Below, in pieces: positions 11,609-63,975 of a stretch of DNA of 64,000 nucleotides. The DNA comes from a virus. The translations under genes were made by a program, and so were the position numbers. Where the stretch lies: positions 1 to 64,000 of the IMG/VR virus record IMGVR_UViG_3300021379_000425. One strand, 5' to 3'. Within the stretch, counting starts at the first letter, position 1. The number at the start of each line of letters is the position of its first letter. Below the pieces are notes generated by a model. The model saw nothing but the letters and a program-made list of their open reading frames with translations, was not told the origin of the DNA and did no database searches.

Positions 11609-13126
11609 TCATTGCGCTGGTCTTCTTGCTACAATGTCATCAATTCTTAGGATGGCGTTAGTAACTTCTGCGGCACTCAATACTGCTTGCCTTACCAGTG
11701 ATAGAGGTTCAACTACTCCTTGCTCTAATAGGTCTAATACGCCGCCATCTTTGACATTTGGACCGACATTAGGATTACCTTGTAGAATCTCGTGTCTCAT
11801 GGCTAGAATGGTATCTAGTGGGTCATGTCCAGCATTCTCAGCAACGGTAGCAGGAATCACCTCTAAAGCGTCAGCAAACGCCTCAATAGCCATTTGCGCC
11901 CTACCACCTATCTGTGCCGCATGATTTCGTAGGTGCATAGCCATACGAGCGTATGCGTTACCTCCACCGACTACAATGCTCTTGTTTTTAATTACCAGTG
12001 AAACAACACCCAAAGCGTCATCAAACCCACGCTCGACTTCTTCTAGTGTGTGAGATGTAGCACCACGCAGTACAAGTGTAGCCTCTTGGCTCTCTTCTTC
12101 ACTGCTTACAAATAGATACCAAACATCATTCTTTCTCTCACGCTCAATTGTTACATCAGCGCACCACTCGAAGTCATCCGGTGTTTGTATGATAGGTAGG
12201 TTAGTAGCACGACTCAATGCACGAAGAGAAGACTCCGGTACACGCCTTACTACCATGATGTTGTGCTTCTTCAAGAAAGTGCATACAACATCGTTGACAT
12301 TATCTCTAGCAAAGACTACACCACCGTTAGGCATTGCCTCCACTATTGGTTTACAACTAGCAATCAAGTCAGCCTTTCCTGCTTTCTTGTATGTTTGATA
12401 TGATTCTACATTGACTTGCAGTTGAATGTTTTCTTCACTCTTCTCACTGTCCAGTCCTGCATTGATTAGCACCATCTTTGAGTATGAGTTGTCACCCTCA
12501 AGTACGAAGTCTTTGTTGACTATAACACCATCAAATAGTGTTGAGTCCTCTAGTGAGCCACCGGGGAAGGATACTACCTTCACACTCTCAGCGTCACCTG
12601 CTTTCTTGACCGCATCTACACACAATGCAGATACATACTCAATAGCACTCTCTAGTGTTTTACCAGTGATTGCAGTACGAGCGATTGATGTCAAGTCTTC
12701 ATCAGTGCCACCTTTAATGGCAATCTCATCTTTTAGATAGTTTACAGCCATCTGCGCCGCCTCATGATAACCACGACAAATGACATTCGGGTGTAGACCC
12801 TTTTCAAACAACATTTCACTGTTACCGAGTAGTTGACCCGACAACACGACTGTACTCGTTGTACCGTCATAGCAAAGCGATTCTTGTGTCTTTGCTACTT
12901 CTGCAATCATCTTTCCACCCGGATGTGATACATCTAATTCTCTCAATATGGTAGCACCATCGTTGGTAACAATAACATTGCCACCACCGTCTACCATCAT
13001 CTTGTCCATACCCATAGGACCGAGTGTAGACTTTACTGTGTCTGCTACACCTTTAGCCGCCCTTATGTTATGTATCTGCGCTTTTCCACTTCCTTTCTTC
13101 TCCTGTTCTGCCATAGTATTCACCAT
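11609..13126 (-). CDS. ths: Group II chaperonin (thermosome subunit)
   Basis: TLGPMGMDKM, TNDGATIL, DGTTS, GGG and ILRIDD motifs. Confidence 0.95.
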   Translation of the reverse strand: MVNTMAEQEKKGSGKAQIHNIRAAKGVADTVKSTLGPMGMDKMMVDGGGNVIVTNDGATILRELDVSHPGGKMIAEVAKTQESLCYDGTTSTVVLSGQLLGNSEMLFEKGLHPNVICRGYHEAAQMAVNYLKDEIAIKGGTDEDLTSIARTAITGKTLESAIEYVSALCVDAVKKAGDAESVKVVSFPGGSLEDSTLFDGVIVNKDFVLEGDNSYSKMVLINAGLDSEKSEENIQLQVNVESYQTYKKAGKADLIASCKPIVEAMPNGGVVFARDNVNDVVCTFLKKHNIMVVRRVPESSLRALSRATNLPIIQTPDDFEWCADVTIERERKNDVWYLFVSSEEESQEATLVLRGATSHTLEEVERGFDDALGVVSLVIKNKSIVVGGGNAYARMAMHLRNHAAQIGGRAQMAIEAFADALEVIPATVAENAGHDPLDTILAMRHEILQGNPNVGPNVKDGGVLDLLEQGVVEPLSLVRQAVLSAAEVTNAILRIDDIVARRPAQ

Positions 13127-19551: not shown

Positions 19552-21954
19552 TCACCACCACCTCTTAGGTACTCTTCTAGCAGTTAAGGAATTTAAATCC
19601 CACTCCAATGTTTCATACACTCTCTTGAGTTTACTGTGAATCCATTTATCGACTATCGTAGACCAATCTACCCCGTAGCCTTCAAGTTGACTCTCATCAT
19701 CATAGGCAATGACATTACAGTATTCTTGGTCCTCCGGTACATCATCAATGAAAACCCACTTGACACTTTCACCTTTGTTGTATTTAGTACCCAAGTATCT
19801 GTTAGAATATCTCGATGCCTTGATTGCATTAGGCACTACCTTGTCATACTCGTGTAGTTGCTTCTTGATACGACCAAATGATGCCGCATAATCAGCACTC
19901 TTTTCACCACTAAATAATTCTTTGATGCTTGGGCGAAGTGCTTCGTACACCTCGTCTTCGTCAGCCCCGCTACCTATCATGCGGAAGGCTTCGCCAATCA
20001 ACTCTTTAGTTACCGCTGGTGCGGTTGATGCCTTGATAGAGAATCCTGTAACCTTCATGTCACCTGCATCTTCCGGTGGCCATGACTTGATACCAAAGTT
20101 CCTGTTCTTGGTATTAGCAGTGAACCAGTAATCAAAGAATGCCTCCAACTCTACATCCAAATACTTCAAGCCCATCTCTTCTTGAGCAATACGAGTCAAC
20201 TCTTCCGCAACTGGTATTGCCTCATCAAATGGTACTTGTATGTAGCAGGAGTCAGTGTGACCTGCAAGACCACGATAGCCCATCTCTTCGCTTTTGTCTA
20301 CAAGCATAGAGATTGACTCACGCCCTAGATAGGTGATAGACTGTGCGATAGGGTAACTTGTCCAGCCACCCTGTAACTTGCCCATTCCTACCATGCCATA
20401 GATAGCGTTGACCGAAACCTTGACCGCCATCTGTAACATGTTGTAGCCCAGTTTCTCATCAGCGTCAGTAGACTCTTTCATAAGTTTCTTGTAGTGCTTA
20501 CGCAATTGTAGCAACTCTCTTACAACCTTTGGAAGTATACCTTCTTGCTTTTGATTCCAGTGGAATGTTCCACCAGTGCCAGCAATGTGATTACCAGCGT
20601 CATCTAACTTTGGTGGTATAGTGAATGAGATAACATCCTCACCAGCCTCTTCCACCATTGTAGTCCAACAAAGGTTTGCTGATAGGATAATGTTAGGGTA
20701 TAGCGATGCGAAGTCAACCAGTGCAACATTCTCATGTCTACCAGCAACAGGAGGCATAACCCATGCCGCCTGTAACTCCGGTCTTTCTTCTTGCCTTGTA
20801 GTAGGTGCTTTGAGTTTTGTTCTTCTACCTACTAACCCTCTAAAGTAGTTTGATACATTGTGCGTACTAGCGAACTGTACACCAGCAACATTCTGCAATG
20901 CTAGGTGGAAATCTGTGCAGTTCAGTTTCATATCAATGTCACGAAGGAGTGTGGTGTCCACTAAACAATAGTCAACGAAATCATCGTAGTACTCCGCCCA
21001 ACCATTGAACACTGTCATGCCCTCAATCTCGTCTGTTAGTTTATGACCCAACCCAAGCGCAGTAGCGAACCAGTTCAGTTTACGCTGTTGTGCTTGACCA
21101 CGACCACTCTTCTGCCATACCCCCTCGAAGCCACTACCTTCGGTAGCCATAGCCGCAGTATCATAAACAAGACGACCCTTGATGGGTTGTGCAGTGGACT
21201 TGTAACCTTCACCATTTTTCTTAGGTGGTAAGAAAATATTTAATGGTGAAATATCTTTTATTCGCTCGCCCAATCTGTCATGCAACTTAGGCAGGTCAGC
21301 CCATGCCCCAGCGTGTGCAATCAGCATATCGGGGTCACACTCTATCAAGTGTGCAACGAAGTTGGATAACATGTACTCTTCGCTTGCGAATGTACGCAAT
21401 TCATAGCCATCGTATCTGTCTATCCATTCCTTCTTTGTAATGCGATTATCATATGAATCTTGACTCCATGCGAATACTACATTCTTCTCAGCATGTGTAT
21501 CACACACTGCTATGACTGTGATTCTACCTTCACCATCTGTCTCCCACTCCATATCGTAATACCACTTACGAGGATGGAATTCGGGAATGCCGTTAGGATA
21601 ACGCTCAAGCAATACTTGGTCTAGGTAAGGTGTGTCCATCTCACATGTCCACTTACCTTTAGGGTCAATAGCATCTTTCATGTTCCACGAATCAAACGGA
21701 TTGTCGTAAGTGACCTTCCATAGTTTACCACCATCAAGGGCAGTAGCCACGATGTTTGAATGTATTACTGCTTTGAATCTCTTAAGTTTCTTTAGTATGA
21801 ATGAAGGCGCATTCTGTCTAATCCAAAAGAACGGTTTAACAAATGCACTATCATCACTGTAAATATAATTCTCTTTGAGTACCCCATCAGGCCCACGAGT
21901 GCGCTCGTACAAATACAAACCCTCGTAACGGCTTTGTACAAAATCTACAATCAT
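19552..21954 (-). CDS. polB: Family B DNA polymerase
   Basis: Exo YDME, DFASLYP, KVSVNAIYG, HTDS motifs. Confidence 0.97.
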   Translation of the reverse strand: MIVDFVQSRYEGLYLYERTRGPDGVLKENYIYSDDSAFVKPFFWIRQNAPSFILKKLKRFKAVIHSNIVATALDGGKLWKVTYDNPFDSWNMKDAIDPKGKWTCEMDTPYLDQVLLERYPNGIPEFHPRKWYYDMEWETDGEGRITVIAVCDTHAEKNVVFAWSQDSYDNRITKKEWIDRYDGYELRTFASEEYMLSNFVAHLIECDPDMLIAHAGAWADLPKLHDRLGERIKDISPLNIFLPPKKNGEGYKSTAQPIKGRLVYDTAAMATEGSGFEGVWQKSGRGQAQQRKLNWFATALGLGHKLTDEIEGMTVFNGWAEYYDDFVDYCLVDTTLLRDIDMKLNCTDFHLALQNVAGVQFASTHNVSNYFRGLVGRRTKLKAPTTRQEERPELQAAWVMPPVAGRHENVALVDFASLYPNIILSANLCWTTMVEEAGEDVISFTIPPKLDDAGNHIAGTGGTFHWNQKQEGILPKVVRELLQLRKHYKKLMKESTDADEKLGYNMLQMAVKVSVNAIYGMVGMGKLQGGWTSYPIAQSITYLGRESISMLVDKSEEMGYRGLAGHTDSCYIQVPFDEAIPVAEELTRIAQEEMGLKYLDVELEAFFDYWFTANTKNRNFGIKSWPPEDAGDMKVTGFSIKASTAPAVTKELIGEAFRMIGSGADEDEVYEALRPSIKELFSGEKSADYAASFGRIKKQLHEYDKVVPNAIKASRYSNRYLGTKYNKGESVKWVFIDDVPEDQEYCNVIAYDDESQLEGYGVDWSTIVDKWIHSKLKRVYETLEWDLNSLTARRVPKRWW

Positions 21955-41191: not shown

Positions 41192-42041
41192 TCATCTCCT
41201 AGTTAGATACCTTTCATCAATCCCTGTGAGGAATGACCTTATCTCCGCCTTAGTCATTTTTTCGGCTATCGACCATCCACCGACATACGAGCCATCATTA
41301 GGAATCCGACTCTTTACTGCATCCCATACGCATTCAGCCCAGTTCATACCGTAGGGTTCATCACGCCACTTGCCGTATGCGAAACCGTGGGCTACATCAT
41401 AAGGGTTTAATCTCCATTCTTGGTCTTCCCACAAACTATCCGTCCATCCATTCACATAATCCCTAATCTCGGAATAAGGAAGATGCCATGTCAAAGTAAC
41501 AAGGTGTTCTTCTTCCTCGCCTTCTGCTATTATGTGGTCTTTTCCATCTTCAAATATGAAATACATACTCTCTTTTTTGTTAGTCATTCTTAATCCTCCA
41601 ATGGGATAACTTCTGTAATGTTACCACACATGGGGCAAAAGATACGGTCTGCTCCGTCACCGTATATGTCATCCCAAATGTATAACAGTTCTTTCAATAG
41701 TTCTTTCATTCCACCATTGCTTCCGCAATTGTTACATTTTATTTCATCTACATCATCTGTTCTCATTCTTCTTCCTCCTTTCTTATCCATCCATCTTCTT
41801 CTGTGTATGTGTACAATTCTTTGAGAAGTATGTAACCATCCTGTTCAACATACTCATCGGGTAATGGTTCGTACAAATCAATCAGCCGATAGTCGTCAAG
41901 ACACACATTGTAATTTTCAACACCATCCCAAAGAGCATTGCCACTTAGAACCATTTCTATCAATTGTTCTTTGCTGTATTTTCGATACTCTTTTTTCCTT
42001 TTCTCGATGTATTCTAATTTCTTTCTTGTTTCTTCCTTCAT
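41192..42041 (-). other. Three small hypothetical genes (41192-41587, 41590-41766 Zn ribbon, 41763-42041)
   Basis: Coupled ORFs; CNNC...CPMC in the middle one. Confidence 0.55.
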
Positions 42042-44602
42042 GCTTTCACCTTCTTTATCTTTCCAAAGTCAGCAGGTAAGTCACCTGCATCAATCATTGA
42101 TTCAATCAATGCTTTGGCAATACCTTCTCTTTGTCCGATGTCGCCTCCATCTAGTACTGCCTTGACGACCCTTCTTTTCTGCTCTACAACATAGTCAAAC
42201 TTCTCGTCAATGGTCTTAGCCACTGAGAGATAGACTGCGTGTACTGATTGTGATTCTTGACCGATACGGTTGACTCTATCTTCTGCTTGCTCTTCCCATG
42301 CAGGAGTCCATTCTCTCTCAACGAAGAGAACTGTATCGGCTGATGTGAGTGTGATACCTTCCTTAGCGGCTACCGTAGCGCATACGATAACATCTAACTT
42401 GTTTGCTTGGAATGCCTCAACCATTTGCTGACGCTTCTCGGCTGATTGCTCCCCAACGATTACACCAACTCTCAAGTTGGTTTCTTTCAGTTGAAGTGTG
42501 ATGCCCTTGAGTACATCTCGATGATGTGCAAAGACAACGATGGGCTTACTAGTGATGTTGTTGTACTCCTTGATGTAGTCAACTGCTGAATCAACTTTGA
42601 TGAGTCCACATTCATGCCTCAACGCTGTAAGCATGTTCAACACGAATCCCTTTGGAATGCTACCTTCTCTTGCATACATCTCGTAGTCTTCAAGCCATGC
42701 TCGATGAAGGTCATTGTATCTCTTGAGGTTGGTCTTGCTTGGTTGCACTGTATTGATTGTCCTTACCTTGTCGGGTAGTTCATCCAGTACCTCTTTCTTG
42801 AGCCTACGAATACAGAAGTCTCTTGTTCTATGATGCAACTCTTCTGTGTTGCTTGCACCGTTGAAATCCCAGCCAAAGCCAGTCTGTTGTCCGTCACAGT
42901 ATGTGATACCGTAGTTGAAGAATGAAGGGAATTCATTCGGTCTAAGTAAGTTGAGTGTAGTGAAGAACTCGTTTGGTCTGTTGGTTATCGCAGTACCACT
43001 CAAGCAAAGGATGTGTTCCGATGCTTGAGCAATCTCAAGGGTTGCCTGTGTTCTTTGTGCCTTACTGTTCTTGAGATAGTGCGACTCGTCACAGACTACA
43101 ATGTTGAATCCATAGTCAAGCAATTGTTCCATTCTACCCTTGATGATGTCGTAGTTACATACAATGATGTCAGCCTGTGGCATTGCACCTTTACGCCCTT
43201 CCAGTACCTCAGCAGTGAGGCTAGGCATCCATGCTTGACACTCCTTCTTCCAGTTGTACTTGACAGAAGCAGGTGCGACAATGAGGGCAGGTAACTTGTC
43301 AGTGTTGAGTGCGATGTGTGCAATGGCTTGGATAGTCTTTCCAACTCCCATGTCATCACCAATCAAACATCTTCCACCAGCCAATTCAGCAAAGCGAACA
43401 CCGACATACTGGAACGGGTATAACTGACGGTCATCGGGGAATACCTTCGACAGTTTGGCATCCATTTGAGCAATCAGTTCTTCATCAGCCAGTGCCGATG
43501 CACCACTGATAGCGATTCGCTGACCTCTCTCTTCCATGTATGTACCGATTTGCGGAATGTCCTCAAGCATCTCGTACAAGTCATAGAGAACAGTGTTAGT
43601 GTTGTCGTTAGTGTACGCTTGCTCAAGTCTATCCATGAAAGCACCAGCCTCGCCAATTGAGATAGACCATGTTTTCTTGTTTGGATTGTATTTCCGCCCT
43701 TGCGTATCTTTGATTAGAGCAATAAGTCTCTCGTTGTATGGGAAAGCCATCTCTAGTGATGTACCCTTGAGTTCAACTGCCATGACAACCTCTTCCTTCT
43801 TTGGCTTCGCAGTACCACTTTCAGTAGTTTGTTGCACACTGGCTAGAGTGGTAGGACATGCCCAGTATTTTGTTCCCGAATAAATCAACTCCACAGCCCT
43901 CGCCAGTACACTATCATCATTCTGTAATGTCCACAGTTTGCGTGTGCCATCATACTTACACGCAGGGAATCCCAGTCTACTCTTGAGCAAGTTGTTCACC
44001 TGCGGGTCATACGGATAGTGTAGTGCAATTCTTTTACTGGTGAATTCTTTTCCGTACCTGTTAGTCCATACATCATCCACGCATGAGAATCTAATCAGCA
44101 TACTGCTCGGTGGTTTCCACTCGGCTACCTTCTGTTCCATCAATGCTCTCGCCTCATCAACCTCGATGTCGAATGCTTCTGCAACTCTAAGCAAGTTCTT
44201 CTCATCGTATCTTACTTCCAACTTTTTGTTCAGTCTTCTTTCTGTGGCGTGCCATAGTACATGTTGTCTTTTCTTCTCAGCCTCTTGCTTGGCGTGAAGG
44301 ATTGCTTGCTGTTGCTCATACACACGCTTGGCTTCTTCGCCTTCTTTCTTTAGTCGTGAAATAAATTCAAGGGCATCGTCATCCAGTCCTGCATCCTGCA
44401 AGAGTGTAGGCAGTTGTGTGTTACGATACTTGTAGAATCTCTCGCTTGCTTCAACCATGTCTTTCATATCAAGAGTGTCTTGATGCGCCAGCCTGTTGAA
44501 GAAAGGATAGTCAGGTTTGTTTGCACCAGTATCATCCTTGTGGTCGGGCGCACCATATCCTACAAAGGTGCGAATCATCTTGTGTAGTTTTAGTTCATTC
44601 AT
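42038..44602 (-). CDS. SNF2-family helicase with two HARP-like domains (SMARCAL1-like)
   Basis: DDMGVGKT, DESH, LSGT, QAEDRVNRIGQ; two PY(D/N)...Y(D/N)...W repeats upstream. Confidence 0.9.
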   Translation of the reverse strand: MNELKLHKMIRTFVGYGAPDHKDDTGANKPDYPFFNRLAHQDTLDMKDMVEASERFYKYRNTQLPTLLQDAGLDDDALEFISRLKKEGEEAKRVYEQQQAILHAKQEAEKKRQHVLWHATERRLNKKLEVRYDEKNLLRVAEAFDIEVDEARALMEQKVAEWKPPSSMLIRFSCVDDVWTNRYGKEFTSKRIALHYPYDPQVNNLLKSRLGFPACKYDGTRKLWTLQNDDSVLARAVELIYSGTKYWACPTTLASVQQTTESGTAKPKKEEVVMAVELKGTSLEMAFPYNERLIALIKDTQGRKYNPNKKTWSISIGEAGAFMDRLEQAYTNDNTNTVLYDLYEMLEDIPQIGTYMEERGQRIAISGASALADEELIAQMDAKLSKVFPDDRQLYPFQYVGVRFAELAGGRCLIGDDMGVGKTIQAIAHIALNTDKLPALIVAPASVKYNWKKECQAWMPSLTAEVLEGRKGAMPQADIIVCNYDIIKGRMEQLLDYGFNIVVCDESHYLKNSKAQRTQATLEIAQASEHILCLSGTAITNRPNEFFTTLNLLRPNEFPSFFNYGITYCDGQQTGFGWDFNGASNTEELHHRTRDFCIRRLKKEVLDELPDKVRTINTVQPSKTNLKRYNDLHRAWLEDYEMYAREGSIPKGFVLNMLTALRHECGLIKVDSAVDYIKEYNNITSKPIVVFAHHRDVLKGITLQLKETNLRVGVIVGEQSAEKRQQMVEAFQANKLDVIVCATVAAKEGITLTSADTVLFVEREWTPAWEEQAEDRVNRIGQESQSVHAVYLSVAKTIDEKFDYVVEQKRRVVKAVLDGGDIGQREGIAKALIESMIDAGDLPADFGKIKKVKA

Positions 44603-51644: not shown

Positions 51645-51935
51645 TTGCTCACTATGTTTAGAATGTTCACAATGTTCATCAGTATGTTCATCAATTTTGA
51701 GCATGTTCATTATGTCATTACACCCCTACAATAATATGTGATTCTCCCCCTACGAATGTTCATTATTACTATATCCTATACTCATATATATTATAGAGAG
51801 TAGGAGTACTATGAAAATGAGCAAAGCCTGTGAGATTTTCCCTATGTAATTGAAGCAAGGTATTGAGCATGAACAATGTTCATTTTTAGTGAACATGGTG
51901 GTGAACAAAGTGAACAAAGTGGGCATCTTGAACAT
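51645..51935. repeat. Origin-like element 1: TGTTCA iterons / AT-rich core / TGAACA iterons
   Basis: Non-coding; inverted arrays of TG(T/C)TCA around an AT-rich centre. Confidence 0.7.
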
Positions 51936-57538: not shown

Positions 57539-60250
57539 ATGCGTAGGGGCGAAGACATCGAGAAAGCCCCTTCCAAACCTAAATCTTTCAAAGAATATTT
57601 AGAAACAATGCTGTCCGAAACTCCACCGTGGGCTTTGTACGAGGAAGGTGGAGAAACGGCACTTGATTATTCACCTTACGACCACCCTAAACTGAAAAAT
57701 GTTGAAGATAAAAAGAAAGAAGATAAATTAAGAGAGTTGCTATTACATGATGAACCTAGATACCGACCTAGACTTCTTGACCCCGAAAATGCTGTGTTTG
57801 TACCTAAATTAGATGATAGATTAGATTCTGTTATAGATGACCCTTTGATAAACTATGGTAAAAAATTCGCAAAGCCTTTTGAAAATGTAATAAGACAGGG
57901 TAAAAGATTAGTTGACCCTAAATTAATACGACCAAAATCGAGTGTACAAACTACATTACCGCAACATTTTCCTAGACTAACAACCGAAAATCCTTACGAT
58001 GAAGAGGGTAGAATAAAACCCGGTGCTATTGCGCCGATAACTGCTTTTAAACAAATGGGTAGAGATGCTTTCAATAATCTTCTTTCTTACGGTTTGATAC
58101 CCGGATTAACAGTTGATTCCTTAGATTGGGAAGATAGGTCTAATTTACGAGATATGACTCCTGTTCCTGTAAAATCGGGGGCATCATTTGTAGCCCCAGT
58201 AGGTACTTTAGATGCCATAAGGGGTACAATGAATCAATCGGGAGGTCGAGGAAAACCGATTTATGTAGGCATTAGAGGATTTGCACAACCGGAAGATAAA
58301 GCATTCTTGAGAACAGACAGTAGAGAACCAATAGAGGCGGCGGCTTTGGGTCGTATTCCACCGGAAAGATTGGTTTTACCTTTCAATGTAGCACAATCGG
58401 GAAAGGAATTTGGAAGCCCACTTTCTTTTGAAGAATGGCGAAATGCTTCAAAAGGACCTACAACATTTGAAGATTATGTGGCACAAATGAAAGGTCCGAG
58501 GTATCTTCAACATTTACAAGATGCTGGATATACGGAAGAAATAGATGATTACAGGCAACTTTGGAATAGTAGACAAGATATGCAAAGATTAGATTATGAA
58601 AAGTATTTACAAACAATGAAAAATTCTAGTATAAGAACAAATTTATTGAATCAAAGACTGGCTGAATTAGGAGAAGATTTTCCACCCTTAACGGCTGAAA
58701 ATTACCCAATGGAAGGGGGGCAAAGAAATCCTTACCAAACATTATACTACGAACATCTTTACGAAGATAAATTTCCAAAAACTGCCGCTGATACAAAAAA
58801 TACAAGGGTAAAACAGGCTTTAGGTGCTGTGCCGAAAGAATGGAGTCAAAACACTAAATTTAATTTGATGAACCCTGCTTTAAGCGATGCTGAAAGGGAA
58901 GCAATAAGACAAGAATTTCAAGCGAATGCTGACCACGAAATACATATGAATAGTAGACATGATGGCACTGTTCACCCTGCTCAATTCAATAGAATTACAA
59001 GAGGTTTGATGAGCGCAATATATGGTCCACAAGCATCTAATATGATTGATTTCCGAGACAATGTAGGAGATTCTTATTCCGAAAGAGGTGAAAAAATAGG
59101 ATTAGAAATGAATAACCCAGCGGCGGCATCGTTAGGATTACCTAATACATGGAACGCACCTCAATTATTCAATCCTAATTTCAATCCTAATCAATCAGTG
59201 ATAAAAGCACCAAGAATCACTGCATACAGTCCTAGAGAAATAAGAGACATAGCACCCGACCTGCAAGGAATTAGGTATATACCGAAAGAATACTTAGAAT
59301 CCGCTGGTAAGCCAATTAGAGTTCATAGTGGTGGGAAAAGAGGTGTAGGGCAATCCTATGATTGGGAGCAGGATTTACAGCGATTAAAATACGATATACC
59401 GCAAAGTAGTTTTTATTCATGGATGATAAATAAACCAAAACCGCTTACAGGTTTGTTTAGTGAAGAATTTAGAATGATACCCGAATACAATATTGCAGGA
59501 AGAGAGTTAGAATTATCTCCGGTTGAAAGTGGAAATATTGTCGCTGGACAGTTTATGCACCCACCAGTAAAAGAAGCATTAAGAGAACCCGATTATACTG
59601 CACATCTTCACAGACCGATGGCTCTCACTGGAATATTGGAACAGCCTCAATTCATGAGAGAAGGAACTGAGGGGTCTAAAGGATTAGGTGAAGGATTCCA
59701 CTATGGAGAACTAGAGCCGGATTCTGTCGTACAATTAGAACTACCACATAATATACAGCCTATGGAAATGGCTAGTGTTGCTAGGAAAAGAGAGTATGAT
59801 AGACCTAGAAATCAAAGAGAGAAAGACGCAATGAATTGGTTAAGCCACATACCAAGTATGGGTGTGCCTACATCTACTGAATGGTGGAAGCAACAGGGTG
59901 CAACGGAAATGACCGCACCTCAACTTGAACAGGCTGGATTATTCCAAGCCGGTGAACCAATGGACATCGCTATGCAGTTGCTAAAGCGGGAGATGAGTCC
60001 GGAAGCGAAACAACATAAACTCGAATATGACAAGAAGTATGAGTCCACGCCGGAGAGAGTCAAGTATCGTGAAGAGTTGAACCGTGAGCGCAGAAAGCGT
60101 GGTATCTACGGTAGCGGCGACCATATGGATGTCAGTCACACCGAGGGTGGTAAGTTAACTCTCGAAGGTGAACATGAGAATAGAGCGAGACATTTCAAAG
60201 AGCGTGGTACGCTTAGACCTAGCAAAATCGCTGTACGCAAAGACAATTGA
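57539..60250 (+). CDS. Multidomain protein: two possible ADP-ribosyltransferase-like domains and a tagged C-terminal HNH-like domain
   Basis: PITAFK...GLIPG...YVGIR...E....IPPERL; IRVH...GE....LEPDSV; EPMDIAMQLLKR then DVSH...ENRARH. Confidence 0.5.
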   Translation: MRRGEDIEKAPSKPKSFKEYLETMLSETPPWALYEEGGETALDYSPYDHPKLKNVEDKKKEDKLRELLLHDEPRYRPRLLDPENAVFVPKLDDRLDSVIDDPLINYGKKFAKPFENVIRQGKRLVDPKLIRPKSSVQTTLPQHFPRLTTENPYDEEGRIKPGAIAPITAFKQMGRDAFNNLLSYGLIPGLTVDSLDWEDRSNLRDMTPVPVKSGASFVAPVGTLDAIRGTMNQSGGRGKPIYVGIRGFAQPEDKAFLRTDSREPIEAAALGRIPPERLVLPFNVAQSGKEFGSPLSFEEWRNASKGPTTFEDYVAQMKGPRYLQHLQDAGYTEEIDDYRQLWNSRQDMQRLDYEKYLQTMKNSSIRTNLLNQRLAELGEDFPPLTAENYPMEGGQRNPYQTLYYEHLYEDKFPKTAADTKNTRVKQALGAVPKEWSQNTKFNLMNPALSDAEREAIRQEFQANADHEIHMNSRHDGTVHPAQFNRITRGLMSAIYGPQASNMIDFRDNVGDSYSERGEKIGLEMNNPAAASLGLPNTWNAPQLFNPNFNPNQSVIKAPRITAYSPREIRDIAPDLQGIRYIPKEYLESAGKPIRVHSGGKRGVGQSYDWEQDLQRLKYDIPQSSFYSWMINKPKPLTGLFSEEFRMIPEYNIAGRELELSPVESGNIVAGQFMHPPVKEALREPDYTAHLHRPMALTGILEQPQFMREGTEGSKGLGEGFHYGELEPDSVVQLELPHNIQPMEMASVARKREYDRPRNQREKDAMNWLSHIPSMGVPTSTEWWKQQGATEMTAPQLEQAGLFQAGEPMDIAMQLLKREMSPEAKQHKLEYDKKYESTPERVKYREELNRERRKRGIYGSGDHMDVSHTEGGKLTLEGEHENRARHFKERGTLRPSKIAVRKDN

Positions 60251-60252
60251 TA

Positions 60253-60459
60253 CTGTTCACTATGTTCACTATGTTCACTTTGCTCATCAAAGTGTTCACT
60301 AAAAATGACCATTTCGATTGCCTAATGTTCAATATATCCCTTATTATAATAATATAATATTAAGAGTAGTAGTACTATGAAAAAATGAACATTCTCATTC
60401 TGCTCATTTTGAATGAACAAAGTGGTGAACATTTTGAACAAAGCGAACATTTTGAACAC
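60253..60459. repeat. Origin-like element 2: TGTTCA iterons / AT-rich core / TGAACA iterons
   Basis: 9-bp-period iterons; shares a 21-bp core with element 1. Confidence 0.7.
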
Positions 60460-60491
60460 AATCTTTATGATGACCTCTCGGTTGACCATAA

Positions 60492-61067
60492 ATGAGGACA
60501 ATGGATGAAATCAATCACTCGGAAGCAGAAATAAGACTACTGGGGCTGATACTTACTCAGTCTGCATTGGTTGGATTAGCAATCGGAGTATTCGACTCGG
60601 ACATATGGTTGAATAACGATGATGCGTTGGTAAACGGCTTTACATATGCAATGGCCGCTTTCTTTATACAAGGAATAGCATATTATTTCTTTAAGATGTT
60701 CTTTGAACAGAACATGCAAGAAAGAGTCAAGATGCAGAATATTGAGAGACAAAGACAAAGCAGATTCAAGAATATGCAAAGCACATTTGATAATCGTAGA
60801 GCAGAAATGGAGTTAAGAATGCAAGAAGCACAACTAGAGGCTGAATTGCGCTGGATGGAGTCCAACCCCGGTAAAATGCCTCCTTCATGGGGTGTACAAG
60901 GTGGTTCACCTTCACTGATAAATCAGTATGAAAATAAATTAATTACAAATCCTCCTACACATCAAGCAGAAATAAAACAGCCAATTAATCTAGGAATAAA
61001 AGATGAAGAGGAAGAAGTACCTCTAAAGAAGGATGGAACACCGGATAAGAGATACAAAACCGAGTGA
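60492..61067 (+). CDS. Membrane protein: two TM helices plus coiled coil
   Basis: Two hydrophobic stretches, then an E/Q/R/M-rich helix; C-terminal KKDGTPDKRYK. Confidence 0.7.
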   Translation: MRTMDEINHSEAEIRLLGLILTQSALVGLAIGVFDSDIWLNNDDALVNGFTYAMAAFFIQGIAYYFFKMFFEQNMQERVKMQNIERQRQSRFKNMQSTFDNRRAEMELRMQEAQLEAELRWMESNPGKMPPSWGVQGGSPSLINQYENKLITNPPTHQAEIKQPINLGIKDEEEEVPLKKDGTPDKRYKTE

Positions 61068-61072
61068 TGTAA

Positions 61073-61333
61073 ATGGGTCGCATATTCAAAACCCCTTCCG
61101 ATGACTCTACGGAGGCAACGCTTAGGGCTATGCATACCCAAAATACTCTTGACACATATTACGAAAAAAGTTTAGGATGGATTAGAACCGTAATAATAGG
61201 GTTTATCGCAGTATTGATAACAAGTTTTTATGAATTACAAACAGGAAATTCCGTATGGGAGGGTACAGTAGAATGGTTTTACGGCAAGGTGGAAAATTTA
61301 GCGAATTTCTTATTCGGGTGGTTGTATGGTTGA
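61073..61333 (+). CDS. Small membrane protein
   Basis: TVIIGFIAVLITSFY TM segment plus amphipathic C-terminal helix. Confidence 0.65.
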   Translation: MGRIFKTPSDDSTEATLRAMHTQNTLDTYYEKSLGWIRTVIIGFIAVLITSFYELQTGNSVWEGTVEWFYGKVENLANFLFGWLYG

Positions 61334-62042
61334 ACCAGCAGGTACGGCACTTGTTGGTGCGATGGTTTGGGGAAAAGCGGTCTTCAATTCATACAGGCCA
61401 CGCAAGGTCGGCATTTACGGCGCAGGACTAGTTGGTAAAACTACACTTGACCGCTTTATGACAACTCCGGGTGAAATGGAAGAGATTGATGAAGAAGATA
61501 GAACAACACACCTAAAATTACTGGGTAAATTTCTCTTACCTAAACCGACAAGAAAAAGAGTAGCATGGAAAGGAGAAAAGAGAGTAGTCTTTTCATCCGA
61601 TATAGGTGGACAAGAGAGATTTTGGAATCTATGGATAGATGATATGGTATCAAGACAAGTAGAGGCTGTTGTCTATGTATTTGATGATAGAGCAGTAAAA
61701 GGCGGTGATGATGCATTACAACAGATTGCTGGGTTCAAATATCTAGTAGACGCAATAGTGTACAAGCAGTATCGTTATCGTAGTTTGAAAAGTAAAATTA
61801 AAGGAAAAAGATATTCTCCAAAACTGATTATGTTAGTTGCTAACAAAGCGGATAGGTTCTTTGACGAGACTGCCGCAATGCTTTGGGGGCAAGACAGAAT
61901 AGGAGAACACAAGATATTCGACCCGTTTAGAGATGATTTGATTAGGCTACAAAAGAACGGTATACCTACAAGAAAATCTTTCATGGCTACAAGAATAGGG
62001 TGGAATGTTGAAAATACAATGGTAAGTCTTTTGACAACATAG
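61326..62042 (+). CDS. Arf/Ras-like small GTPase
   Basis: G1 GAGLVGKT, G2 RTT, G3 DIGGQ, G4 NKAD, G5 MAT; hydrophobic N-terminal helix. Confidence 0.9.
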   Translation: MVEPAGTALVGAMVWGKAVFNSYRPRKVGIYGAGLVGKTTLDRFMTTPGEMEEIDEEDRTTHLKLLGKFLLPKPTRKRVAWKGEKRVVFSSDIGGQERFWNLWIDDMVSRQVEAVVYVFDDRAVKGGDDALQQIAGFKYLVDAIVYKQYRYRSLKSKIKGKRYSPKLIMLVANKADRFFDETAAMLWGQDRIGEHKIFDPFRDDLIRLQKNGIPTRKSFMATRIGWNVENTMVSLLTT

Positions 62043-62051
62043 GTGAGATAT

Positions 62052-62219
62052 ATGGATAAAACGAAAATAGTATCAGTTGGTAAGGCAAGCAATAGCGTAA
62101 GAACTGTCATACCGATGTGGGTTGCTAAAATGTTAGAGATAGAAGTAGGCGATAAGGTAACTTGGCAGATAGTAAAAACTGACAATGGCTATGCGGCAAG
62201 AATAGAGGTGGTAGAATGA
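62052..62219 (+). CDS. AbrB/MazE/SpoVT-type DNA-binding protein (not in ORF track)
   Basis: Hand translation MDKTKIVSVGKASNSVRTVIPMWVAKMLEIEVGDKVTW...; AGGTGA RBS. Confidence 0.75.
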   Translation: MDKTKIVSVGKASNSVRTVIPMWVAKMLEIEVGDKVTWQIVKTDNGYAARIEVVE

Positions 62220-63139
62220 ATCAAGGATATAATTTAGCAGAAGTAAACACAGCGCATTTGTACGCTTTGAGTCAACAGGGTAACAATATGCTTTCTCATC
62301 AAGCCCTTAGTGACCAAGCATTAGCGCAAACAGCAATGCAAGAAATAGGTACTGAACAGAATTTACAAGTTCCTAAAGTAAATTTCTACCCAAGTAGACA
62401 TCCCGACCCTCATAAGGCTAGAAGAAAAGACATCAAACAGGCTTACAAACTTCTTATGCCTTCAAAACGAAACTTTTTCAATCCGGCAAGAATGTTCTTA
62501 GGTCGTAAACATAGATACAACAAGCAAACAAATGTTTGTGTTGTTGATGGATGCGATTGTGCTACTTTAATCAAATATGATAACTTGTATGATAAAATTA
62601 AAGATGAAGAAACTGGAAAATCTCTTTGGGAATTATACTGGCAAAATCCAGTAACAGGTGAAGATGAAGCGTTTATTGCGAAAGAAAAAGTCACAAATGG
62701 TAGAAAAATGAGAGGTACATATTGCCCCGAACATTTACATCTCTATCATTTGCTATGTAAGTGGGAAGCAGAAGAAGAGAAAATTCGTGAAGCAAACCCA
62801 AGAAGATTGCGTGACCATGTGAGAAAAGGAGTTAGTGTTGTTACTGTACCAGTATCGACTATCAAAAGAAAAGACCCCACTCCTAAATTCTTAGAAAAGT
62901 ACGAAGGATTCTTTGCTGAACTAGAAAAAGACTCTAAGAGGACAAAAGGTATCAACATTCTGCATTATCAAAACCCTCAAAATGGAATGAATGATGTCAC
63001 TATGATTGTTTTTGACCTTAGAATATTCCAGCAAGAACTAGCAATGATGAACCAACCGACCCCTGCATTTCAACAAATGATGAATGGGCAAGTTAATATC
63101 CAAGCCCCTGCTGAGGAAGTACCACTGATGGGTGAGTAA
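62216..63139 (+). CDS. Hypothetical protein with probable Zn site
   Basis: CVVDGC...YCPEH. Confidence 0.65.
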   Translation: MNQGYNLAEVNTAHLYALSQQGNNMLSHQALSDQALAQTAMQEIGTEQNLQVPKVNFYPSRHPDPHKARRKDIKQAYKLLMPSKRNFFNPARMFLGRKHRYNKQTNVCVVDGCDCATLIKYDNLYDKIKDEETGKSLWELYWQNPVTGEDEAFIAKEKVTNGRKMRGTYCPEHLHLYHLLCKWEAEEEKIREANPRRLRDHVRKGVSVVTVPVSTIKRKDPTPKFLEKYEGFFAELEKDSKRTKGINILHYQNPQNGMNDVTMIVFDLRIFQQELAMMNQPTPAFQQMMNGQVNIQAPAEEVPLMGE

Positions 63140-63728
63140 CATGCTCGGACTCGGAAATAATAATCAACAACCAATGAATAACGGTATGCTTAATTTAGGT
63201 GTACAAACACAAACACAACCTGTACCGGGTCAATTCCCCGGTATGGTGCAACAACAACAGTTTGGACAACAAATGTATCAACAACCAGCACCTCCTAGTG
63301 AAATGGAAATGCAGATTCTTTTGTTGAGAGGTATAGTTCCTGTTGACAGGTTTATCGCAAGTAATCAAATGGCTACACTAGTACAACTAATCAACAATGT
63401 GGTTAGTCTAAGTGTTCTTGAGGTTATGAAGAACGCAGTATTCATTGAAGACGAAGAGGCTGGCGGATTAAAACTAGATATTACTAAACTACCAAGTCAT
63501 CTTCAAACAATGAGTGCTGAGAACATCAAGGCTGAGTTTGCTACAATGCAAGGCACTGCACAAGGTAACATTCAACAGGCTGAGATGACACAGCAACAAA
63601 TAGCGCAAATGGCTCAACAATCTGCAATGAGTGGTGCAATGCAACGCTTGATGCAAGATGAAAGTCTAATGGATAAGGCTGGTGAAACCGCTGGCAAGTT
63701 CATGGGCAACTTCTTAGGCACGAGATGA
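63132..63728 (+). CDS. Q/N/M-rich protein with helical C-terminus
   Basis: Low-complexity N-terminus, coiled-coil-like and amphipathic C-terminus. Confidence 0.65.
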   Translation: MSNMLGLGNNNQQPMNNGMLNLGVQTQTQPVPGQFPGMVQQQQFGQQMYQQPAPPSEMEMQILLLRGIVPVDRFIASNQMATLVQLINNVVSLSVLEVMKNAVFIEDEEAGGLKLDITKLPSHLQTMSAENIKAEFATMQGTAQGNIQQAEMTQQQIAQMAQQSAMSGAMQRLMQDESLMDKAGETAGKFMGNFLGTR

Positions 63729-63732
63729 TAAT

Positions 63733-63975
63733 ATGGATGAAAGGAGATACATGCCAAGTGGAGTGGCGGCTTCAACGCTAGATGTTTTGAACCCTACAAG
63801 AAGCGTTACTGTTGATATGATAATGGTACAGTTCTTGTCTGCCATACTTACAATTCTTGTAATCATATTATTCAAAGGTCAAACTTTAGGTTCTTCTACT
63901 GCATCTTACTTGATGCTCGCTATGATAGCATCAATTATTATGCTCTCAACAGTATATGCTAGAATAACCAAATAG
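63733..63975 (+). CDS. Small two-TM membrane protein (holin-like topology)
   Basis: Two hydrophobic helices in 80 aa. Confidence 0.6.
   Translation: MDERRYMPSGVAASTLDVLNPTRSVTVDMIMVQFLSAILTILVIILFKGQTLGSSTASYLMLAMIASIIMLSTVYARITK

Follow-up and report, generated by a model that had tools for sequence, protein, structure and literature searches.

What defines Arf GTPases, according to one description, is an amphipathic helix at the N terminus that GTP binding sets free, through an interswitch toggle (bioRxiv 10.1101/2024.02.28.582541). According to the account in PMC10927574, the Arf-like protein ArvA of Haloferax, which carries an N-terminal amphipathic helix and has the Zn-ribbon protein ArvC as a neighbor, drives vesicle formation. 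The players in the egress of tailed archaeal viruses are called "completely uncharacterized" in PMC10791045. Here, we analyzed a 64,000-nucleotide (nt) stretch of viral DNA (the window), which corresponds to bases 1 to 64000 of the 85,252-bp IMG/VR record IMGVR_UViG_3300021379_000425, classed as linear and estimated to be 79% complete. Towards its right end, the window holds a block of seven genes, g1 to g7, that includes a predicted Arf-like GTPase (g3) and its constant neighbor (g5). We tentatively read this block as a late, membrane-directed GTP switch cassette for which egress would be the leading role.

The block comprises seven + strand open reading frames (ORFs) at positions 60492 to 63975, exactly where a preliminary description made from the letters alone had placed seven tightly coupled genes, and their order is the same in 80 related loci, which goes beyond chance. 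The genes g2 and g3 overlap by 8 nt, g4 and g5 by 4 nt, and g5 and g6 by 8 nt, while g3 and g4 abut and the other gaps measure 4 to 5 nt. As a noncoding stretch of 241 bp (60251 to 60491, + strand) precedes g1 and a convergent ORF for a Cys-rich protein of 79 amino acids (aa) bounds the block after g7 (genome positions 63976 to 64215, − strand, running beyond the end of the window), the block looks like a discrete unit.

The g3 gene (61326 to 62042) encodes a 238-aa protein. Its AlphaFold2 (AF2) model, built from a 19-sequence alignment, had a mean predicted local distance difference test score (pLDDT) of 87 and a predicted template modeling score (pTM) of 0.85, and placed a helix at residues 4 to 23 ahead of strand 1 and extra helices at residues 127 to 162 and 181 to 210. 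Against 48,161 representative structures, VIA-align put Arf6 (Z 17.4 and 17.2), Sar1 (Z 16.9; root mean square deviation [rmsd] 2.7 over 159 aligned residues), and SRbeta (Z 16.2) on top. A second VIA-align comparison, over the 1000 best chains from Foldseek, returned Arf6 (Z 17.7; rmsd 2.3 over 159 aligned residues), Arl8b (17.4), Arl8 (17.1), GerdArfR1 (16.7), Arl3 (16.6), and HodArfR1 (16.4). Eleven of the 12 top rows were Arf, Arl, or ArfR chains, with Z scores from 17.7 to 15.4, whereas Rab and Ras chains scored at most 15.3. The family profile pointed the same way when compared with the PDB: it matched the structure 8oun (E 1.6e-7), in an alignment spanning the N-terminal helix and P-loop, and Arl8 was matched with an E of 1e-5. 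Chain 8oun_A is GerdArfR1 (bioRxiv 10.1101/2024.02.28.582541).

In the model, the N-terminal helix anticipated by the preliminary description overlays that of Arf1, Arl2, and Arl3 in their full-length structures (the aligned ranges of the model start at residue 7 or 8). Compared with the known family (Arf6, Arf1, Arl8, Arl3, and Arl2; the Asgard ArfR proteins, among them GerdArfR1 [PDB 8OUN and 8OUM]; Sar1 and SRbeta), g3 shares the switch II pattern DIGGQxRFxxxW with Arl8 and, in the model, has its helix ahead of the P-loop as in Arf proteins, but it exceeds them by about 60 residues, carries inserts in switch I and near helices 3 and 4, and comes from a tailed prokaryotic virus. Mimivirus, too, encodes a small GTPase of the Ras superfamily, a Rab (PDB 5XC5) that matched the g3 model with a Z of 14.9; that protein is the Rab of a eukaryotic giant virus, whereas g3 is Arf-like, belongs to a head-tailed virus assigned to archaea, and sits in a fixed cassette with membrane proteins. 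By model and profile, g3 is thus a divergent Arf-like small GTPase, as had been supposed, which scores under the curated threshold for the Arf family and has inserts particular to the viral family.

The sequence motifs of g3 agree in part with what had been claimed for them. Besides the helix at residues 4 to 23, the main features are the P-loop (32 to 39), DIGG (92 to 95), and NKAD (173 to 176). A complete set of G1 to G5 boxes had been noted; the window protein has G1 (GAGLVGKT), G3 (DIGG), G4 (NKAD), and a G5-like MAT, but the G2 threonine is ambiguous, since it could be T60 (within RTxH), which 95 of the 99 distinct sequences of the family retain, or T75 (Thr in 77 and Ser in 16). Residues G32, G37, K38, D92, G95, N173, and K174 are invariant among the 99 sequences, a Thr or Ser is kept at position 39 in all of them, and D176 is kept in 98. 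Conservation extends to D120 and R122 (99/99) and to W103, R110, and H195 (98/99 each). Switch II of the window protein reads DIGGQERFWNLW. The DxGGQ motif in it had been taken for an Arf-type hallmark, a claim that found no support in this form: the residue after DxGG is Gln in 46 of the 99 sequences, Glu in 30, Asp in 15, His in 6, and Ala and Phe in 1 each, so the DIGGQ of the window protein is no hallmark of its family. GTP hydrolysis by these proteins may need a partner or another residue.

Single-sequence searches with g3 stopped short of named GTPases. All Pfam matches were below the cut-off (Roc, E 0.0064; Gtr1_RagA, 0.093; Arf, 0.39), and PF00025 (Arf) was not reached, with 10.6 bits against a gathering threshold of 22.3 and 10.2 bits in a six-frame search; the best PF00025 E among 19 family members was 0.0048. 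Even so, the family is a large and coherent one; a word-indexed search found 481 proteins at an E of ≤0.001 among 914 candidates, some of them named "GTPase SAR1 family protein" by JGI. A phmmer search of 1.84 billion cluster representatives listed 76 proteins at an E of ≤0.001, many of them fragments and the full-length ones down to 29% identity, in a library that carries no names or taxa and from which cellular members cannot be read. The nearest ESM Atlas clusters to the GTPase were viral, followed by bacterial clusters with PF00025 in 17 to 67% of their members, which we treat as leads only. As a separate observation, 23 separate stretches of a 2180-aa database protein, P0133, match the GTPase; this could be an assembly or gene-calling artifact or a tandem array.

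We then considered how the block is distributed among relatives. The best 80 of 156 IMG/VR relatives, found through the GTPase, served as close loci, in which the genes were sought by tblastn. In all 80, g3, g5, g6, g7, and two downstream genes were found in one order; g1 and g2 were found in 79, the single miss being a contig end, the gene of the upstream 903-aa protein in 65, and g4 in 57. A set of 80 loci chosen through the large terminase (TerL), independently of the GTPase, gave the same picture, as the block was present in 31/31 of those with at least 9.3 kb of upstream sequence. The GTPase is 63 to 83% identical across the 80 close loci and is the best conserved member of the block, with a median identity of 70% versus 41 to 61% for the other six.

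The 17 distant loci, from the P0128 and P0126 groups, encode GTPases that are 32 to 40% identical to g3. There, g5 lies directly 3′ of g3 in 17/17, while g6 was found in 13 and the downstream gene for a 230-aa protein in 12. By blastp, g1 was found in 4, g2 in 2, and g4 and g7 in none. The ORF maps of two of these loci, L087 and L095, read in the same order as the window: a protein with two transmembrane (TM) segments, a protein with one, the GTPase, g5, a Q/N-rich protein, and a protein with two TM segments. The maps of L098 and L101 run from a TM protein and a small ORF to the GTPase, g5, and a Q/G-rich protein, and a thermosome gene lies alongside. Because g5 follows g3 in all distant loci and the other members vary, the constant core of the block is g3-g5, with g6 and small membrane proteins around it in most cases. 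The conservation of the neighborhood, on which the preliminary description depended, is therefore borne out by 80 colinear close loci, all 31 TerL-chosen loci, and the g3-g5 pair of all 17 distant loci. P0131 had no match in IMG/VR, and a PHROGs search with the flanking genes of the distant loci recognized only DNA methyltransferases, upstream. In L098 to L101, the most distant lineage, the cassette stands directly after the thermosome gene and is followed by a gene whose 808-aa product has a TM segment at its C terminus.

The GTPase family had no match in 50,697 GenBank phage records and none in PHROGs, in line with the view that an Arf/Sar-type GTPase is unusual in tailed viruses. A scan of one genome per species for 185,579 prokaryote species gave a single locus, L084 (NZMJ01000140.1), an 8.8-kb contig filed under a Maricaulis metagenome-assembled genome, which holds the whole cassette with a GTPase 72% identical to g3. 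As this short contig carries the whole cassette, misbinning of a magrovirus fragment is the most likely explanation. We rejected host DNA and a chimeric join as sources of the block, given that the sole prokaryote locus is this short contig and that all 31 TerL-chosen loci hold the block, which by these comparisons is viral, as had been assumed. In the literature searched, we found no paper that mentions both magroviruses and a GTPase; the word "GTPase" occurs 0 times in the main texts of PMC5434244, PMC10160649, and PMC11706807, whose supplementary tables may list the gene.

The product of g5 (62216 to 63139, 307 aa) is the closest companion of the GTPase. In all 80 close loci, g5 adjoins g3 or is separated from it by g4 only, with an additional insert in L034. 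This insert, of about 830 bp (L034:5717-6550), lies between the GTPase gene and the AbrB-like gene. Residues C108, C170, and P171 of g5 are invariant, H173, H175, and H178 are nearly so, and an invariant A68-R69 lies within a basic helix. Its earlier designation as a Zn protein fits these conserved Cys and His residues but is weakened by the second Cys, which shifts position, and by the distant homologue in L101, which lacks the histidines. The AF2 model of g5, examined for a Zn module of the ArfGAP or Sec23/24 type, had a pLDDT of 74 and a pTM of 0.55; its best VIA-align match (Z 5.6) was to helical membrane proteins, Foldseek gave nothing at an E of ≤0.001, and the ESM Atlas gave nothing usable.

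A predicted complex of g3 with residues 50 to 295 of g5, GTP, and Mg scored 0.54, compared with 0.02 for the best of 3 controls. The mark for this score is reached by 58/80 solved complexes and 2/110 mismatched pairs, but the range from the mark to 0.60 contains only 7 of the 80 solved complexes together with both passing mismatches. The runs agreed in at least 48% of contacts, with a partner pLDDT of at least 61. The predicted contact between g3 and g5 gained weak support. Taken with the strict adjacency of the two genes, this score modestly raises the odds that g5 binds the GTPase, and we regard g5 as a candidate partner, either an effector or a regulator. The g6 product (63132 to 63728, 198 aa) is Q/N-rich, as first noted, or more precisely has a low-complexity N terminus rich in Q, N, G, and M ahead of a conserved core (invariant P55, E130, and N131) and a Gly-rich tail.

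Three members of the block are small membrane proteins. The g1 product (60492 to 61067, 191 aa) has a strong TM segment at residues 16 to 34, a weaker, aromatic hydrophobic segment at about 51 to 71, and a charged C-terminal half rich in Q, R, and E. It had been described as having two TM segments; the first is firm, but the second falls below the hydropathy threshold in the window protein and in 65/80 orthologues, two segments being seen in 14/80. The stretch GAGGACAATG of g1 is shared with L003, which suggests that the second ATG, at 60501, is the true start. The other two topologies held up. The g2 product (61073 to 61333, 86 aa) has one TM segment, at residues 34 to 52, and an aromatic C terminus, and 77/80 orthologues likewise have a single segment; its positional analogue in L087 and L095 is a 74-aa protein with one TM segment. 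The g7 product (63733 to 63975, 80 aa) has TM segments at residues 29 to 47 and 60 to 78, with two segments in 80/81 sequences and positional analogues of 81 to 88 aa with two TM segments in L087 and L095. By size and topology alone, g7 is holin-like. None of g1, g2, and g7 matched a described holin family in Pfam or PHROGs, and the only PHROGs match of g7 was to phrog_24899, of unknown function (E 0.031).

The Arf-like switch, its constant orphan partner, and the small flanking membrane proteins, which share a strand with the structural genes, together led us to propose a nucleotide-switched action at the host membrane late in infection. We rank egress first on the strength of these three observations, the uncharacterized state of egress in tailed archaeal viruses (PMC10791045), and the ArvA precedent (PMC10927574); non-lytic remodeling or an assembly platform comes second, morphogenesis or packaging third, and exclusion or host takeover last. 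In the proposed mechanism, the GTP switch g3 would use its N-terminal helix to attach to the cytoplasmic membrane of the host, depending on the bound nucleotide, g5 would act as its effector or regulator, and the small membrane proteins g1, g2, and g7 and the Q/N-rich g6 would be further partners. As infection ends, the cassette would time or execute the disruption or remodeling of this membrane and thereby allow virion release. Our data establish the genes with their order and conservation, the fold and motifs of the GTPase, and the viral origin of the block, whereas we infer that g3 binds membranes and pairs with g5, that the block acts late, and that it serves egress.

Several observations weigh against this proposal. 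Late timing is deduced from gene order alone, and in L098 to L101 the block adjoins a thermosome gene, with no packaging gene recognized nearby. In Pfam, PHROGs, and NCBIfam, g1, g2, g5, g6, and g7 gave nothing above the cut-off, and the same searches found no homology of the block to lysis, holin, virus-associated pyramid (VAP), or coat proteins. The score of the g3-g5 complex lies in a range that is more often wrong than right unless the pair is likely beforehand. As for the GTPase itself, Foldseek's own order puts Rab, Ras, and Rho chains first (E of about 5e-9), 0/19 family members reach the Arf gathering score, and their weak Pfam matches scatter (at an E of ≤0.1, Roc in 10, MMR_HSR1 in 7, GTP_EFTU in 5, and Arf in 5 of the 19). 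The N-terminal helix has no more than moderate amphipathicity (a hydrophobic moment of 0.28 and a mean hydrophobicity of 0.28) and was modeled with a pLDDT of 54 to 71. Finally, a catalytic Gln kept in 46/99 sequences makes the mechanism of hydrolysis uncertain.

In its boldest form, the proposal would make the block a minimal, virus-owned membrane machine of the Arf/Sar type, with g3 as the switch, g5 as an effector or GTPase-activating protein, g1, g2, and g7 as receptors, and g6 as a scaffold, and this machine would be the egress system of tailed archaeal viruses; we hold this version to be rather unlikely. If true, it would mean that membrane scission or rupture driven by a small GTPase exists outside eukaryotes and their Asgard relatives, and that a virus group ranking among the most abundant in surface ocean waters has revealed the egress system of tailed archaeal viruses. 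A fixed, virus-specific cassette is in any case a concrete and testable candidate for the means of leaving cells without peptidoglycan, and the GTPase would extend Arf-type switches to prokaryotic tailed viruses.

The alternative that survives best, although we judge it unlikely, is that the cassette remodels the membrane without lysis, by a vesiculation similar to that of ArvA or COPII or by the formation of a compartment, with the GTPase, g5 as its regulator, and the TM proteins as receptors. The outcome would be vesicles, an assembly platform, or a compartment for replication or assembly at the host membrane. The Arf/Sar-like fold of g3 is as expected in this case, the low-complexity, Q/N-rich regions in g5 and g6 could lend themselves to scaffolding, and the vesicles that depend on ArvA with ArvC as neighbor provide a precedent (PMC10927574). 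The ArvA-ArvB-ArvC operon of Haloferax volcanii, with ArvA (HVO_3014) compared by its description in that source, likewise combines an Arf-like GTPase, an N-terminal helix, a Zn-type neighbor, and the membrane. However, the neighbors of ArvA are ArvB (DUF2073) and ArvC (a DUF2072 Zn ribbon), and neither family was matched by g4 or g5 in Pfam at an E of ≤1. The viral block also differs in that TM proteins are part of it and in its 307-aa g5, which has no known fold, a further point against non-lytic remodeling, as is the lack of any recognized coat-like protein. To our knowledge, magroviruses are tailed viruses without a known lipid component, which counts against this alternative as well.

It is distinctly unlikely that the GTPase and g5 serve in virion morphogenesis, packaging, or the control of late expression, with the membrane proteins forming a separate, holin-like lysis or exclusion function. 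The position of the block, between the gene of the 903-aa protein and genes of unknown function that lead to those of TerL and the portal on the same strand, would suit such a role, and so would the fact that the strict pair is g3-g5 rather than g3 and a TM protein (by blastp, g1, g2, and g7 were detected in 4, 2, and 0 of the 17 distant loci). Yet positional TM analogues flank the GTPase in L087 and L095, g2 overlaps the start of g3, and the structural neighbors of g3 in the Arf family are membrane switches. Phage holin lysis cassettes likewise place small membrane proteins near late or structural genes, and the 80-aa g7 product crosses the membrane twice by prediction; in contrast, the viral block has no match to holin, endolysin, or spanin families in Pfam and PHROGs. 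We know of no lysis cassette that includes a GTPase. The presumed host has no peptidoglycan.

It is very unlikely that the block serves to exclude superinfecting viruses, an option named in the preliminary description, or to take over the host at its membrane, for example by blocking the entry of other viruses or host division. Small viral membrane proteins often serve exclusion, but exclusion genes are usually variable accessory genes, whereas this block is fixed in all 31 TerL-chosen loci, shares its strand with the structural genes, and has a GTPase with 63 to 83% identity across 80 loci.

Compared with the core and its membrane proteins, g4 (62043 to 62219, 58 aa) is a less constant element. 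The AbrB-type regulator seen in it by the preliminary description was a partial success: 14/16 orthologues match PF04014 (MazE/SpoVT-AbrB), with a best E of 2.4e-6, but the window protein stays below the cut-off (22.5 bits against 24.7; E 1.1e-4), and a PDB search with the profile, taken to an E of 1, turned up neither an AbrB nor a MazE structure. The product of g4 is possibly a DNA-binding regulator. It is not the integral autoregulator of the operon that had been envisaged, as the gene is missing, with no room for it, in 23/81 close loci (present in 58/81) and was undetected in 17/17 distant loci; judged from these distributions, g4 is an accessory member and a lineage-specific add-on.

Autoregulation by g4 in the lineages that have it, through the repeats upstream of g1, is on balance unlikely. 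Upstream of g1, five copies of TGTTCA (60254 to 60331) stand to the left of an AT-rich core and five copies of TGAACA (60386 to 60458) to its right. Inverted hexamer arrays of this kind (score of at least 2) occur upstream of g1 in 34/53 distinct loci with g4 and in 0/20 without it, and their half-sites differ between lineages (TGTTCA, TATTCA, TGGTCA, or TAGTCA). This contrast and the PF04014 matches of the orthologues speak for such a role, but the contrast is confounded by descent, because the loci without g4 form one related group, and is a hint. Moreover, 19/53 loci with g4 show no array, and the gene is missing from 23 close and all 17 distant loci. A second, similar TGTTCA/TGAACA array lies at 51645 to 51935, far from the block, so the repeats are not specific to the operon; the two are the only dense arrays of this kind in the 85-kb genome and might act as origin-like elements or as operator sites used in common. 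A TATA-like CTTTAT (60463 to 60468), about 26 to 35 nt before the two candidate starts of g1, is a putative promoter element of that gene, and a T-rich TATA-like box (CTTTAT, TTTTAT, or CTTATA) is found at a similar distance in 5 relatives (L003, L013, L031, L047, and L071). In the P0128 group, a small ORF before the cassette (L087:5165-5311 and L095:5053-5310) looks like a ribbon-helix-helix protein by eye and may replace the AbrB-like gene in that lineage.

A scan for sigma-70 promoters and terminators did not rise above shuffled sequences (23 promoters versus a mean of 19.5, and 5 terminators versus 5.0), with a model that is unsuited to an archaeal virus. In X1, a 2016 metatranscriptome labeled "viral metagenome," contigs of 209 to 374 nt cover parts of g3, g4/g5, g5, and g6; as the library may contain DNA and the contigs do not show strand, ends, or level, we draw no conclusion on transcription from them, and the uncovered parts prove nothing.

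The family search of the record revealed a thermosome subunit (11609 to 13126), a family B DNA polymerase (PolB; 19552 to 21954), and an SNF2 helicase (42038 to 44602) on the − strand of the window and, past its end on the + strand, TerL (genome positions 69880 to 71367), the portal (73512 to 75248), and a LAGLIDADG/HNH-type nuclease. TerL and the portal thus share their strand with the seven-gene block and lie some 6 to 10 kb further on. Thermosome and SNF2 genes are among the traits that PMC5434244 assigns to group A magroviruses, and it lists a LAGLIDADG nuclease within the structural module; it also ranks magroviruses about third in abundance among the virus groups of surface oceans. Since the gene content of the record fits these traits, the record probably represents a group A-like magrovirus, an assignment made from gene content.

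Directly upstream of the block, the 903-aa protein (57539 to 60250) matches with its C terminus only phrog_6437, of unknown function (E 1.3e-17). Downstream, the 230-aa protein (genome positions 64260 to 64952) shows a weak hint of a GerE helix-turn-helix (E 0.0089). Its gene is conserved together with the cassette in 80/80 close loci, and its orthologues in L087 and L095 start with a CxxC motif; speculatively, it could be a small terminase. The convergent 79-aa ORF had opposite-strand tblastn matches in 49/98 loci, right after g7 wherever the position was checked, and its Cys residues have a CxxC ... CxxC-like spacing.

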